Of a stretch of DNA of 64,000 nt, positions 6,879-32,275 are shown in pieces. The notes below the pieces were generated by a model. The model did not search any database. It was not told the origin of the DNA and worked only from the letters and a program-made list of their open reading frames with translations. How positions within the stretch are numbered: position 1 is the stretch's first letter; every line of letters begins with the position of its first letter. The position numbers and the translations under genes are program-made. This stretch comes from a virus (taxonomy: Duplodnaviria; Caudoviricetes): positions 32,001 to 96,000 of the IMG/VR virus record IMGVR_UViG_3300045594_000145. One strand, given 5' to 3'.

Positions 6879-7860
6879 AATACATAGGTTATAGCCTGTA
6901 TTCAGAATTGCACTGAATGTTATCTACTAAGACAGACAGTTTAGCAGGATTATCGCACCTGCTAGGCGACTTAGGCTGAGAAAATTGACCTTCATTTACT
7001 TACATCCTTGCTCGGTTGGCCGCGCAATTTCACACAACTGTTTTACAATTGTAGTAAGTATCGACACTGGTTTTGTGAAAACCAGCAAACTCTTACTATA
7101 TCCTCAGATAACTTTCCTTTCCTAACAGCTCCCCTTGGAAGGGTTCGATAGCTCCCGCCACCTAAGTTAAATTAGTAATTGTACTTGTTTGCCCTATACC
7201 TTGCGAGCTAGTAGCATCTGTATGTTACAACAGAATAAGTCGATATGTCAGAATATAGTCGAGCACGCTTTTGCTTTTGTTAGAAAACTTTTCAATATCC
7301 AATTGATTTTTCATATTTTCATAAAAGTTTCGCGTAATAACGATTTATTAGTCGATGTGGTGCTCGTTCGGTATCCCACTCTTTTGGAGTGGATCCAACC
7401 AACACCGCCTTCCTTTCGCGTCACCTACTCAGTTTATTTGCTGTTTACAAGTGATGTTTCAATCGACTCGTTGCAAATAATGAAGCCCGCACTTAAGTTT
7501 GACGAACTTTGCACGAACAACCTCTATCCGTAATCGTATATTTCTATACTTATTTACCGGCTACGAACCGATAACTGCTCTAATAACTATAAAATCTGCA
7601 CGAAGTTATAGCTAGCACTACGCATAATATAGAGTCTTTCTGTGGAAGCATTACACTCGCAAAGCACGTTGAACTTTGCTTTGGCCCCATTACTGGGGTT
7701 ATCCTTGGCTACGGCTACGAAGACTAGCCGCTGAGAATTTAGCTTATTGACCGAAGTCATAATTTCTAGGCAATACCACGTAGAGGTATCTCAATCATTG
7801 CCCGACTGGCTTGCGCCAGCTTCTTTTGTCGTTTCTATTAATAAATTAAGTTTTCCTTAA
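6850..7860 (-). ncRNA. large structured ncRNA, ROOL/GOLLD class (ROOL favoured)
   Basis: ~1 kb with no credible ORF between a sigma-A promoter and a terminator; dense hairpins; motifs CUGAGUAGG, GGUGUUGG..CCAAAAG..CACCAC, GCAAAAGCGUGC and 3' UCUCAGCC recalled as ROOL-like; near tRNA cluster. Confidence 0.65.
7732..7803 (-). ncRNA. HDV-like (theta-type) ribozyme R7
   Basis: P1 GGGCAAU/AUUGCCU, P2 UGAGAU/AU(U)CUCA, P3 ACC/GGU, L3 UCUACGU, P1.1 CU/AG, P4 with UUCG loop, J4/2 GCUAA. Confidence 0.85.
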
Positions 7861-7871
7861 CTTATATAATA

Positions 7872-7900
7872 ATTATATCATATTTTTTAAAATGAGTCAA
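7872..7900 (-). promoter_or_regulatory. sigma-A promoter of large ncRNA
   Basis: TTGACT-17 nt-TATAAT with TG extension. Confidence 0.8.
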
Positions 7901-8526
7901 GAAATTTTTGAAAGAATTAATTCACTTTCCGGAAGTGTTTCTACCCACTCGCAAAAAATTCTCCACTCTGGTAAACGATGGTTTTTTCTTTGAGAATAAA
8001 TAGTCTTTAATTCTCTATAGTTAGTAACTATGCGCGCAGTCAAACGGAAACCCGCAGGATTAGAATATAGAATCTCTAAATATTTCTCATTTAACTCTCT
8101 TCCATAAAGTTCTTTTTGTTCTTTTGTTTCAGCTAAATCTGATTTTTGAAGAAGATCTTCATATTTAGCAATTTTGTCTCTCATAATTTCTATGATGCGC
8201 GGATCAACTTCTTTCATATAACTTGTATCAAGATCAAAAGAAGTAATTCTGTGCATTGTAGACTGAGAGGAAACAAAATTTGCAAAACGGTATCTTTCAA
8301 ATTCTACCCACGCCTTATTGGAAAAGCAAAGATCGAACATTACGGTTATTCCAGTTAAAAATTGGTCTTCACCGCATCCTTTAGGAGAATTTGCAAGAGC
8401 TTTAACCGTCTTAGTAATCTCTGGGGTTGCTTTTGAAAGGTCTGTTAAGTAAGAAAATTTAGAGCCTTGAATAGATTCTTCTAATCCGTAAACATGGACA
8501 TTTGAAATTATATCATCAATTTCCAT
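7897..8526 (-). CDS. ThyX-fold (FAD-dependent thymidylate synthase-like) phage protein
   Basis: EFERYR..VSSQSTMHR and TNYRELKTIYSQRKNHRLPEW resemble a ThyX-related phage family. Confidence 0.5.
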   Translation of the reverse strand: MEIDDIISNVHVYGLEESIQGSKFSYLTDLSKATPEITKTVKALANSPKGCGEDQFLTGITVMFDLCFSNKAWVEFERYRFANFVSSQSTMHRITSFDLDTSYMKEVDPRIIEIMRDKIAKYEDLLQKSDLAETKEQKELYGRELNEKYLEILYSNPAGFRLTARIVTNYRELKTIYSQRKNHRLPEWRIFCEWVETLPESELILSKIS

Positions 8527-17625: not shown

Positions 17626-18285
17626 TCACTTCTCGCAGAAGTCACAAACTTTAACCTTAGTGACAATGCGGCGCCCTCTGCGGTCACGCAATTCAAGAAT
17701 AGGCTTACAGACAAGGCCTTCCATCACTAAAGAAGGATCCTCAGCAACAAGAGAAGTAGGCTTTGTCTTGACAAAAGCAATAGCTTCAGCTAGTGTCGCA
17801 GAAGGAAGTACAACTGGGGCCGCAGATATACCAAATTTAGTGGCAACATCTTCAACATCCTGCCGAGAAAGGTATAGGTCGCCCTCAGGGAAATATACAT
17901 CAAAGAGCGCAAAGCCGCAAGAGTCGTGTAAATATCTTCCTCCACCCTTTTGAATCTTCGCCCCATAACCTTCTCCAAAGAGAATAACCTGAGTCGAGCC
18001 AAAGACTTGCTCAAAGAGTTCCTCGGTGTTAGAGTCTCCAAAAGTAGAAGTCAAGTAGAAAACTAGATTAGAAGGAAGTTGCGCCCTGTCAGTGTGTCCC
18101 GCAAAAGATACTCGATGCCCATCCCAGATAACTCTGGTATTAGTTCCGTCAATTTTTTCAGTGCAACAGAATGGCAAGTCTTTAATAAACTCAAGTTCCT
18201 CAGAACGATATGCGCCCTCTATTAACCTCTTAGTCCCATCTTCCGCTCTGCGGAATGGAGTTTCTATCTTTTGATATTCAATCAT
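17626..18285 (-). CDS. ATP-dependent RNA ligase (Rnl2-like nucleotidyltransferase)
   Basis: motif I TEKIDGTN, LFGEGYG, FALFDV, MEGLV, TKVK. Confidence 0.8.
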   Translation of the reverse strand: MIEYQKIETPFRRAEDGTKRLIEGAYRSEELEFIKDLPFCCTEKIDGTNTRVIWDGHRVSFAGHTDRAQLPSNLVFYLTSTFGDSNTEELFEQVFGSTQVILFGEGYGAKIQKGGGRYLHDSCGFALFDVYFPEGDLYLSRQDVEDVATKFGISAAPVVLPSATLAEAIAFVKTKPTSLVAEDPSLVMEGLVCKPILELRDRRGRRIVTKVKVCDFCEK

Positions 18286-21124: not shown

Positions 21125-21415
21125 TTAGTTGTCGGCCTTCAAATTATAAATAGGATATAAGTGATCAAGAACCTCCGCAGTAGGCGCGATTAATTCTTCA
21201 ATCTCTGCGGCGTCCTTATAGGCATCTGGGGCTTCGTCTAAAGTATTGGCAGAAACAGAGGTAGTAACAATATCTTCCATCTGCTCCTTATAGGCATTGA
21301 GATCAATTGTTGCCTTAGCAACTGTTCTACTCATTGCGCGACCCGCGCCATGTGGGGCTGAGCAGTTCCATTCTTCATTCCCTAGACCCCTACAAATTAG
21401 AGTGCCGGCGCGCAT
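21125..21415 (-). pseudogene. rtcB: C-terminal fragment of RtcB RNA ligase
   Basis: GNEEWNCSAPHGAGRAMSR and TLDEAPDAYK are RtcB C-terminal motifs; N-terminal metal-binding region absent; no clear RBS. Confidence 0.8.
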
Positions 21416-21702
21416 ATCTTACAAGAACTGCATTTCGTCCCTTGATTGCCTTTTGTTTCTTGCTTAGTGGGCTCTAACACTCTTTCGTCAAAATACCAGT
21501 CCGTTACATCAAGAAAATAATCTGCATTACCATCAACGCCACCACACTTTTTAGTAACAGTGTGAACTGTATTACAGAAATCTGCCATTTGTCTACAGAA
21601 ACCTGTATTTCCTTTAAGGTTTCCACACTCGTCTACTCCAAATTCTTTTTCCATACTCTCCCAACTTCTAACTCTAACCTTGTCACCTACTTTGAATTTC
21701 AT
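21397..21702 (-). CDS. hypothetical SH3-like protein (N-terminus shared with 33688 ORF)
   Basis: MKFKVGDKV.VRSWE.M..EFG.D..G. Confidence 0.7.
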   Translation of the reverse strand: MKFKVGDKVRVRSWESMEKEFGVDECGNLKGNTGFCRQMADFCNTVHTVTKKCGGVDGNADYFLDVTDWYFDERVLEPTKQETKGNQGTKCSSCKICAPAL

Positions 21703-26824: not shown

Positions 26825-26853
26825 AAAAAAGAGAAGCCGCAAGGCTTCTCTCT
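26825..26853 (-). terminator. intrinsic terminator
   Basis: GAGAAGCC-UUGC-GGCUUCUC + U6. Confidence 0.8.
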
Positions 26854-27157: not shown

Positions 27158-27211
27158 GTGTTTTCTCCTTTGCGGCCCTTGCTGCCGTCTTACTACTGCG
27201 TCTATCACGCA

Positions 27212-27234
27212 GGAAAAACCTGCCGAAGCAGGTT
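27212..27234 (-). terminator. terminator-like hairpin closing the ribozyme array
   Basis: AACCUGC-UUCG-GCAGGUUUUU. Confidence 0.7.
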
Positions 27235-27289: not shown

Positions 27290-27374
27290 AGAGAATTGGT
27301 TCTTCTACTTCGGCGGCGAACCGCTTCCTTGAATTAGTAGACTGCGCCGCATAGAGGCTTCTCTTATGCAGTCC
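27290..27374 (-). ncRNA. HDV-like ribozyme R6
   Basis: P1 GGACUGC/GCAGUCU, P2 AGAGAA/UUCUCU, P3 GCC/GGC, L3 UCUAUGC, P1.1 U-A, J4/2 AACCAA. Confidence 0.8.
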
Positions 27375-27544
27375 TAATCAAATCATAATACACATACTTC
27401 TCAGGTATGCCGAGGCTTATTTGCACTGGTCATGACTCCACGCTTATTCGCCATTTCTGCCGCAACCTACTTTCATCGCGATGTCCAGTAAGTTCTTTTG
27501 GTGTAACCATCCTAACAGTAAGGACTGGTAAGATTTGATTGTGA

Positions 27545-27610
27545 TAGATTTAGTTCTCTCGCCCAAGAGCAAGTCCAGCCGCACCCCGTGGAGGTATCTA
27601 ACTTGCGGCC
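27545..27610 (-). ncRNA. HDV-like ribozyme R5
   Basis: P1 GGCCGC/GCGGCU, P2 UAGAU/AUCUA, P3 ACC/GGU, L3 UCCACGG, P1.1 CC/GG, P4 CUCUU/GAGAG, J4/2 AACUAA. Confidence 0.9.
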
Positions 27611-27860
27611 ACCCGCTTATCTTATTGAAAGCGGTAGAAAGTCAGTTTTGCTCTTTGAAAAGCTAAGTCAACCTGCCGCCGCAGGATTTAAAGCGTACGC
27701 AACTCTTCTTTTTGGTTAAGAGAGGTATTGACGAGAGAACCGCCCCACGTCTGGGGACTTAGTGGCTTAAGCTTTGACTTCGTACAGTGCTACACTAACT
27801 GAAGTCTAGGCGTTAGTATGTCATTACATTGCAGTAATGGATACTTAATCCTTGTATTTT

Positions 27861-27931
27861 GGGTACGTCTGGAATCGAACCAAAACCTTCTCCCCATACA
27901 AGAGGAGATGCACAGCCACGCACTGTATACC
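27861..27931 (-). ncRNA. degenerate tRNA-like domain inside the ribozyme array
   Basis: T-arm UUUGG-UUCGAUU-CCAGA, extended anticodon arm UCUCCUC-UUGUAU-GGGGAGA, partial acceptor GGUAU/GUACC. Confidence 0.6.
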
Positions 27932-27959
27932 GTCAGGGTCTTTCACCAAAGGATTATTT

Positions 27960-28030
27960 GTAGAACTTTGTTTAGTCTGGAGCTACCAAATTGTCCACTC
28001 TCGCCACGGGGAGGCGTCTACTATGAGAGC
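27960..28030 (-). ncRNA. HDV-like ribozyme R4 (bulged P2)
   Basis: P1 GCUCUC/GAGAGU, P3 GCC/GGC, L3 UCCCCGU, P1.1 CC/GG, P2 GUAGAC/GU(U)CUAC, J4/2 CAAA. Confidence 0.65.
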
Positions 28031-28086
28031 ATATAGATTGCGCGGTTACTTACTTGGGCGCGCCAATGAACCGTCTGCCGCAATCT

Positions 28087-28608: not shown

Positions 28609-28938
28609 TTACTTATTAGCTTTATAATTCTTCCAGAAATCGGAGTTGACTATAAAGTTATTCATATGGAGATAGAAGTTATCACTATAACCGGTTGCCG
28701 CATTAGTCATGTGATACTGATCAAACCATGCTTCTTCACTGTAACCATTTGCTCTATCGTGGAAAGTAACACGATACACTGAATTGACGCCACTGTGGTC
28801 TTCATACCTATTATCGTATCTTTCATGGATAACCGCGTAGAAGCGACCTTTGTAAACGTCCTTTTCTATTTGTTTATTCATGTGACGAACAGCAGTTCTA
28901 GCGCGTCTTTTATTCGCTCTTACTTTTTTGTCTATCAT
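28609..28938 (-). CDS. hypothetical basic protein embedded in the ribozyme tract
   Basis: start MIDKKV after GAGGGAG RBS and promoter. Confidence 0.7.
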   Translation of the reverse strand: MIDKKVRANKRRARTAVRHMNKQIEKDVYKGRFYAVIHERYDNRYEDHSGVNSVYRVTFHDRANGYSEEAWFDQYHMTNAATGYSDNFYLHMNNFIVNSDFWKNYKANK

Positions 28939-28963: not shown

Positions 28964-28992
28964 ATTATATCATAGATTTTGAAGATTGTCAA
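28964..28992 (-). promoter_or_regulatory. sigma-A promoter driving ORF 28609 and ribozymes R3-R6
   Basis: TTGACA-17-TATAAT with TG extension. Confidence 0.85.
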
Positions 28993-31900: not shown

Positions 31901-32275
31901 TTATTTTTGAAATTCTTTATAAATCTTTTCAGTGCTGTTGTAAATCTGGTCGAGTGCATTTTCCATAAATTCGCAAATCTGTTCATCAATCACTTCAGCT
32001 TCTCTTACACAATAGTTGTAAGTAAAGAGTGCCGCATGGGTTAATTCATGCGTAATAGTCCTACGGAGTAACTGTGGTGAAAGTCCTCTTGCAATGTAAA
32101 TCTCACTTGTTTCAAAATATGTAATGCCATAAGCCCCATCATCAACAGTTGTTTCATCTGTTACCTCAGCCCTCCCAAACATGTGAGGATTTTCACGAGC
32201 CACCAATCTTACATTCCAAACAATATTACCAATAGTTACAGTGGTGGTGTCATAAATTTCATCGTTCGTTCTCAT
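31901..32275 (-). CDS. HExxH zinc metallopeptidase (ImmA/IrrE-like)
   Basis: YGITY...IYI...TITHELTHA...EQICE. Confidence 0.7.
   Translation of the reverse strand: MRTNDEIYDTTTVTIGNIVWNVRLVARENPHMFGRAEVTDETTVDDGAYGITYFETSEIYIARGLSPQLLRRTITHELTHAALFTYNYCVREAEVIDEQICEFMENALDQIYNSTEKIYKEFQK

Follow-up and report, generated by a model that had tools for sequence, protein, structure and literature searches.

The stretch of DNA analysed here, called the window below, is 64,000 nucleotides long and forms part of an IMG/VR record of 108,945 bp with direct terminal repeats (IMGVR_UViG_3300045594_000145, positions 32,001 to 96,000). The record belongs to a phage of the Caudoviricetes that carries around 20 tRNA genes and is found in data sets from manure, pig, wastewater and sludge. 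Its words make up small shares of the RNA runs X15 to X20, and these shares are no evidence on habitat or expression. The large terminase of the phage shares no more than 45% identity with its counterparts in Bacillota-type phages and in phage contigs from gut and rumen MAGs. Relatives at intermediate distance, with large terminases 59-69% identical, exist in Logan/ENA.

We studied a 166-nt non-coding RNA segment of this phage, hereafter the cargo, encoded at 27375..27540 on the minus strand. It sits in a non-coding stretch of 1.4 kb that is flanked by two small orphan genes. Upstream of this array lies the gene of an Arg-rich protein of 109 aa (28609-28938, minus strand), and downstream of it the gene of a 97-aa protein. 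The unit is preceded by an extended sigma-70 promoter (28964..28992, minus strand; TTGACA, 17 nt, TG-TATAAT) with 12 of 12 matches, and a strong intrinsic terminator (26828..26853, minus strand) ends it past the 97-aa gene. Since the unit is transcribed on the minus strand, the cargo is read as the reverse complement of the window, from 27540 to 27375. Neither flanking protein matched a Pfam or PHROG family, and relatives sought through them were absent from viral and metagenome contigs; the 97-aa protein has only a 98% identical twin and one 43% identical relative, the latter from Logan. The GC content of the cargo (41.6% vs 36% for the genome) is unremarkable, as 18% of the windows reach the same value. 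Past the array and its ribozyme R6 (see below), ahead of the 97-aa gene and its ribosome-binding site, we observed a terminator-like hairpin (AACCUGC-UUCG-GCAGGUU followed by UUUUUCC, 27210-27234, minus strand), which could attenuate the read-through of the array into this gene.

On its 5' side the cargo is preceded by R5, an HDV-like ribozyme at 27544..27610 (minus strand) with a predicted cut 5' of G27610. R5 gave a weak yet full-length match to the Rfam family drz-agam-1 (exactly 27545-27610), and its P4 is short. The P1 helix reads GGCCGC/GCGGCU in the window and GGCUAU/GUAGCU in other strains, i.e., it is kept between strains by two compensatory pairs and one wobble. R5 is also a hot spot of divergence: the window and the strain contig L083 (2079-2145, minus strand) are 86.6% identical over the ribozyme, against around 99% for its downstream neighbours. 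On the 3' side of the cargo lies R6, also HDV-like (27294..27374, minus strand), which starts at G27374 and whose predicted cut makes the 3' end of the cargo. Read from the sequence, R6 has a 7-bp P1 opening with a G.U pair, a 3-bp P3 (GCC/GGC), a 7-nt L3, a P4 with the tip GCGG-UUCG-CCGC, and a 6-bp P2 (AGAGAA/UUCUCU).

A covariance model built from two R5 alleles alone (model R2) matched R6 at 27292-27373 with E=0.006. Across the 64 kb this model matched ribozymes R2, R3, R4 and R6 and one more, all on the minus strand and with E<0.01 (match positions in ascending order: 7802, 27373, 28030, 28140 and 29057), and every remaining match was no better than E=0.55. The additional HDV-like ribozyme is located outside the array (7734-7802, minus strand; E=0.0009 with model R2, and 57 bits with model R3, a ribozyme model made from the elements of this phage). 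A 209-aa minus-strand ORF (7897-8526) lies just upstream, and the ribozyme is preceded by the hairpin GCUGGC-GCAA-GCCAGU, which ends 2 nt ahead of the cut. Judged by these models and by their helices, R5 and R6 are genuine HDV-like ribozymes, for which we predict self-cleavage.

HDV-like ribozymes cleave at their own 5' end. Hence, R5, which is expected to cut 5' of G27610, should remain joined to the 5' side of the cargo, and the predicted product is an RNA of 236 nt running from 27610 to 27375, with a 5'-OH and a 2',3'-cyclic phosphate. One 196-nt contig of the RNA library X17 spans 27389-27579 and bridges the junction between R5 and the cargo, as expected if R5 stays on it. The data of the RNA runs consist of contigs, which are no proof of transcription, strand or RNA ends. 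The contigs of run X17 fall only in the non-coding array, some bins of run X15 are empty, and such gaps in contig cover carry no meaning.

The limits of the cargo are precise. It begins with the 5' arm of a closing stem (AAUCAAAUC, 27532..27540, minus strand), 3 nt past the end of R5. The 3' arm (GAUUUGAUU, 27376..27384, minus strand) is followed by a single nucleotide, A27375, which is the last one before the R6 cleavage site. The two arms form a perfect Watson-Crick helix of 9 bp. A stem placed in this way is rarely expected by chance: only 96 of 200,000 random anchor pairs with the same spacing in this window had one (around 5e-4). An earlier note, made from the letters of the window, had described a segment of about 165 nt between R5 and R6 with a 9-bp terminal stem, and both were found as described, the segment being 166 nt long and the RNA strand being the minus strand. 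In a nested pairing model, which ignores the pseudoknots of the ribozymes, the pairing probability of the closing stem is 0.96 in the excised cargo, 0.62 when R5 is attached and 0.08 in the uncleaved piece. All of the ribozyme cuts in this phage have a stem of 6-11 bp within 1-5 nt upstream, and those at ribozymes R2, R3, R4, R5 and the one at 7802 are short local hairpins. The cargo is a real, precisely delimited element, and its exact fit between two HDV-like ribozymes that are predicted to self-cleave, together with the 9-bp closing stem, indicates that it is probably excised as a small stable RNA.

The cargo belongs to no known family. Rfam 15 gave no match in it at the gathering thresholds, nor at E<=10 with queries of 5 kb and 341 nt. 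ARAGORN identified no tRNA or tmRNA in the cargo, and no tmRNA in the whole window. The Rfam tRNA model had no match in the 341-nt query at E<=10, not even a local one. The covariance-model comparison proposed in the earlier note has thus been made, and nothing matched even with lax filters. Nor does the cargo have coding capacity. The same note had reported no ORF, which is essentially right: only a 43-aa ORF on the plus strand (27407-27538) and a 46-aa ORF with a GTG start on the minus strand (27444-27584) overlap the cargo, and neither has a ribosome-binding site. We also considered an antisense RNA and rejected it, since no complementarity between the cargo and the phage genome exceeds 12 nt, a length expected by chance.

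We then compared the inner fold of the cargo with the five helices proposed before. The minimum-energy fold (-39.9 kcal/mol vs -28.3 for the fold of the earlier note) consists of the closing stem, two hairpins and a 3' hairpin domain. Hairpin 1 (27506..27529, minus strand) pairs ACCA-(G bulge)-UCCU with AGGA-UGGU around a 7-nt loop, and this bulged hairpin is one of the proposed elements that stood. Hairpin 2 (27464..27494, minus strand) is an 8-bp helix, AACUUACU/AGUAGGUU, with an inner CAU/AUG stem and a CGCG loop. Its pairing probability is 0.47-0.62, it is invariant in all strains seen, and it takes the place of two of the helices proposed earlier. In the 3' hairpin domain (27387..27427, minus strand), the helix AGUGCA/UGUAUU is followed inwards by a 3-bp stem and, at the apex, by a 5-bp stem with a CUGAGAA loop. 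The proposed CAUAC/GUAUG hairpin is also present at the place given for it. The other two proposals fared worse: UACUGG/CCAGUG has a pairing probability of 0.01-0.07 in every context and has one of its pairs turned into a C.A mismatch by a strain variant at 27426, and the minimum-energy fold has hairpin 2 instead of UCGCGAU/GUUGCGG. Two of the five helices were therefore wrong or unsupported, the rest being present. The fold is not more stable than that of shuffled sequences beyond chance (z of -1.0 for the isolated 166 nt and of -0.3 to -0.5 with flanks). The heptamer AAUAAGC does occur twice in the cargo, as had been noticed (27415-27421 and 27442-27448, minus strand). We rejected it as an enriched motif, since it occurs at chance frequency in the whole window (17 seen vs 19.2 expected).

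Variation between strains provides information on this fold. We used contigs from four runs and one JGI contig, L083, a metagenome strain that carries the only other copy of the cargo (L083:1910-2075, minus strand; 165 of 166 positions identical, 99.4%). Five sites of the cargo vary in the strains and none of the changes breaks a pair of the minimum-energy fold. In run X3, an A-U pair of hairpin 1 (27526 and 27509) became G-C on the RNA strand, a compensatory change of both partners. At 27426, a change from G to A on the RNA strand turns a G.U into an A-U pair in the 3' hairpin domain. The two remaining changes fall at the bulge of hairpin 1, which varies freely (27525, RNA strand G to A), and at an unpaired position (27503, RNA strand C to U). 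The minimum-energy structure is the same for every strain variant. When the five substitutions were placed at random, the combination of no broken pair with at least one compensatory pair arose in around 1% of the trials (P ~0.01). The fold rests on this one compensatory pair and on the placement of the closing stem, and not on thermodynamics or deep covariation.

The sequence of the cargo is conserved to the same extent as R6, the leader and the coding block next to it. Between L083 and the window, identity is 99.4% in the cargo, 98.8% in R6, 99.3% in the leader, 99.0% in the coding block and 86.6% in R5. In run X3, 5 of the 22 differences fall in the cargo, roughly in proportion to its length. 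Hence, no constraint is evident at the level of the sequence. The cargo has no insertion or deletion in any strain, while nearby non-coding modules carry replacements of 65 to 194 nt. For example, one contig of run X3 has 40 other letters in place of 27845-28040 (the tRNA-like module and R4, a 194-nt replacement), and L083 lacks about 77 nt inside 27611-27859. The strains are mosaic across 27806-28040. ARAGORN reports a 'tRNA-Thr' at 27860-27932, which has no Rfam tRNA match even at E<=10.

Searches for homologs of the cargo covered phage, viral, metagenome and MAG sequences, and outside strains of 97% identity or more they found none. The 1.5-kb array had no blastn match among the INPHARED phages. 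Degenerate DNA patterns derived from the cargo found nothing in viral or genome contigs and one near-identical strain in metagenome contigs. A covariance model built from the single cargo sequence (model R1) scored 214-215 bits on the window and on L083, its sole matches. Overall, around 110 distant relatives gave it no match, and the sequences searched took in 50 complete IMG/VR records from terminase relatives and 76 further loci that included phage contigs from GTDB MAGs. With filters off, it found none in 12 loci selected by ribozyme or synteny, and it detected no paralog of the cargo within the window. The search for homologs with covariation, which the earlier note had suggested, thus returned nothing outside near-identical strains, and covariation amounts to the single compensatory pair given above. 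The proposal of a novel ncRNA motif fared well in part: the segment is non-coding, flanked by ribozymes and free of Rfam matches. Given the lack of distant homologs and the two unsupported helices, we regard the cargo as a candidate for a conserved motif or a new ncRNA family, and not as an established one. Its detection in near-identical strains alone leaves both fold and function weakly supported.

More distant relatives of the phage inform on the role of the ribozymes rather than on the cargo. A search of 35 related viral records with model R3 gave matches in seven. These matches start directly after a tRNA in five loci (L157, L158, L159, L160 and L164) and directly after a tmRNA in L162, they follow ORFs in L154 and L155, and in L156 the match lies 4 nt past an 11-bp stem that encloses a domain resembling a T-arm and a D-arm. 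The theta-type ribozyme thus follows on tRNAs, on a tmRNA, on a closed tRNA-like RNA and on mRNAs, and by these positions it acts as a general maker of 3' ends in this phage group. The tmRNA of L162 (1152-1560; G032:C1:10465-10872, plus strand; tag AKPYRLAA* according to ARAGORN) ends at the base just ahead of the theta-type ribozyme match, which would therefore make its 3' end. The L156 module (1405-1500, in G011, plus strand) has 91 nt, a closing stem of 11 bp (AGAAAUGCUUU/AAAGCAUUUCU) that ends 4 nt ahead of the ribozyme cut, and a canonical T-arm (GGUUCGAAUCC) followed by a D-arm-like element (GCAGAGCGGUUAAUUGC). Its appearance is that of a permuted tRNA or of a tRNA-like domain that lacks free acceptor ends, and it resembles the tRNA-like module of the window upstream of R5.

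Homologs of the 109-aa protein (around 30-35% identity) are encoded inside tRNA clusters, in the same orientation, in L170, L171 and L176 (genomes G003, G011 and G005, respectively). In G011 the homolog is followed by around 495 nt of non-coding sequence, a ribozyme and tRNAs, which mirrors the arrangement in the window. The cargo operon is therefore the positional counterpart of a tRNA/ncRNA operon.

The theta ribozymes are among the known systems closest to this arrangement. They are minimal HDV-like ribozymes associated with tRNAs in gut phages (Kienbeck et al. 2024, PMC10879173). The same study reported 526 theta ribozymes that are not associated with tRNAs, 493 of them in non-coding regions and with no function assigned, and described no non-tRNA cargo (PMC10879173). 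As in these systems, an HDV-like ribozyme lies here directly 3' of a stem-closed RNA, with the cut 1 nt past the stem, and distant relatives of this phage carry the canonical form of tRNA and ribozyme. Yet, the RNA ahead of R6 is not a tRNA according to ARAGORN and Rfam, and R6 has a full P4 hairpin and thus is not of the minimal type. A further difference is that a ribozyme, R5, also lies ahead of the cargo and would stay on the 5' end of the RNA once released.

Another comparison is offered by the RNAC and RNAD of phage T4, small non-coding RNAs that are transcribed together with tRNAs from its tRNA or ncRNA region and are still without a known role (PMC3014915, PMC9697503) and are classed as late RNAs (PMC9697503). 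The cargo operon resembles them as the positional counterpart of the tRNA clusters of relatives, and differs from them by its early-type sigma-70 promoter. Maturation of the T4 RNAs relies on cellular tRNA-processing enzymes and is not known to involve ribozymes. By analogy, they may be regarded as the closest functional counterparts of the cargo, with no relation in sequence or family expected. In the bacterial Y RNAs (YrlA/YrlB), the 5' and 3' ends form a closing stem, and they are often found near a tRNA-like Y RNA and RtcB. The window has its tRNA-like module one ribozyme upstream of the cargo, and the phage has a remnant of RtcB. By eye, we recognised no Ro-binding helix motif of Y RNAs in the cargo. 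A TROVE/Rsr gene (PF05731) is absent from the whole record of 108,945 bp, in a search that gave matches in control genomes, and a Y RNA would therefore lack its partner. We dropped this reading for want of a TROVE/Rsr gene in the phage genome.

We favour the view that the cargo is a lineage-specific small RNA of the phage with ends made by the flanking ribozymes, and give it a probability of about 0.5. Its boundaries, its closing stem, the identities of the two ribozymes and its lack of coding capacity are observed; from these we infer cleavage, accumulation of the product and any function in trans. The perfect sigma-70 promoter at 28992 would give rise to one minus-strand transcript comprising the 109-aa gene, around 1.4 kb of non-coding RNA and the 97-aa gene. 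R5 would cleave at its own 5' end (27611/27610) and R6 between 27375 and 27374, one nucleotide past the closing stem, in a geometry equivalent to that of a tRNA acceptor stem, discriminator base and theta ribozyme. The resulting 236-nt RNA would contain R5 and the 166-nt cargo, and if a host nuclease trimmed R5 the cargo alone would be left. Once freed, the cargo might fold by itself into the closing stem and three main hairpin domains, the stem protecting its 3' end. The RNA would then act in trans early in infection, most plausibly by binding a protein or as a decoy. Counting against this reading are the ordinary fold energy, the lack of homologs outside near-identical strains, a conservation no higher than that of the adjacent R6, leader and coding block, the want of any antisense target above 12 nt in the phage genome, and the low probability of the closing stem (0.08) in the uncleaved transcript.

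The main alternative is that the cargo is a structured spacer, or folding insulator, which has no function in trans and merely separates R5 from R6. We consider this possible, if rather unlikely. The stem next to the cut would prevent upstream sequence from mispairing with the ribozyme, and the ribozymes would process the mRNAs of the two flanking genes. Upstream hairpins indeed help the genomic HDV ribozyme to fold, and the stems found just upstream of every cut in this phage, mostly short local hairpins, are what one would predict under such a role. The position of some ribozymes of relatives directly behind ORFs (L154, L155), the ordinary fold energy of the cargo and the absence of detected homologs also count in its favour. 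However, a local hairpin of 6 bp suffices elsewhere, whereas here a perfect 9-bp stem spans 166 nt, with the low chance probability given above. In addition, the substitutions between strains leave the inner helices intact, and in a dense phage genome these 166 nt have been kept free of indels while adjacent modules are swapped.

The three other explanations are weaker than both the small RNA and the spacer. The cargo is improbable as the relic of a tRNA cluster, i.e., of one or two tRNA or tRNA-like genes decayed past recognition and kept as mere filler of an operon that in relatives has real tRNAs. Such an origin would fit the placement of the homologs of the upstream 109-aa protein in G003, G005 and G011, the gene order of G011, the length of the cargo (about that of two tRNAs), and the closing stem, single nucleotide and cut that mimic an acceptor stem with its discriminator base. 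Yet, neither ARAGORN nor the Rfam tRNA model detected anything of the kind, the cargo has no T-loop or D-loop motif, and the fold preserved by the strain substitutions is not that of a tRNA. Even less credit is due to a switch acting in cis, in which CAGUCCU of the cargo would pair with AGGACUG (the cut junction and the 5' strand of the R6 P1) and thereby control R6 cleavage and the downstream gene. When the cargo is folded with its flanks, its 5' portion does pair with the beginning of R6 at minimum energy, and the closing stem has a probability of only 0.08 in the uncleaved transcript. But nested folding ignores the ribozyme pseudoknots, a complementarity of 7 nt inside 250 nt is unremarkable, and run X3 alters two of the seven nucleotides of the alternative helix (27526 and 27525) with no compensation on the R6 side. 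That the cargo is a gene for a small protein is very improbable. The two ORFs mentioned above exist, but neither is preceded at a usable distance by a Shine-Dalgarno sequence, the one on the minus strand begins within the core of R5, and the one on the plus strand opposes the transcription unit. Moreover, only one of the five strain substitutions falls at a third codon position in either frame.

If the preferred reading of the cargo as a small RNA is extended to the phage group, its theta-type ribozymes could be general makers of cassettes, releasing tRNAs, a tmRNA and undescribed stem-closed small RNAs other than tRNAs. The cargo would be a member of the last class: a stable RNA that takes effect early by binding a host protein or serving as a decoy for one, and its 5'-OH and 2',3'-cyclic phosphate ends might also make it a substrate for ligation of the RtcB type. 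We put this forward as a tentative idea, more doubtful than probable. The locus is a clean case, as two ribozymes bracket a self-contained, stem-closed RNA that is not a tRNA in a strongly promoted unit. Its value is as a case in which one can test what the non-tRNA theta-type ribozymes process. Should the cargo accumulate, ribozymes would form the 3' ends of a new type of small RNA in phages as well as those of tRNAs, the role of such RNAs could be approached through a tractable example, and the locus would be a natural version of the 'ribozyme-RNA-ribozyme' expression cassettes used in synthetic biology. Should it be only a spacer, it would be an ordinary by-product of the ribozyme array.

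Some other features of these phages deserve mention. The RtcB of this phage is a C-terminal remnant (21137-21421, minus strand) that covers Pfam positions 325-425 of 426 and contains one internal TAA. An intact gene of an RNA-ligase family is encoded at 17626-18285 (minus strand). Finally, the window phage has no tRNA with a CUA anticodon; such tRNAs, labelled 'Pyl' by ARAGORN, are amber suppressors and are encoded in L156, L162 and L166 (genomes G011 and G032), which suggests stop-codon recoding in these two phages.
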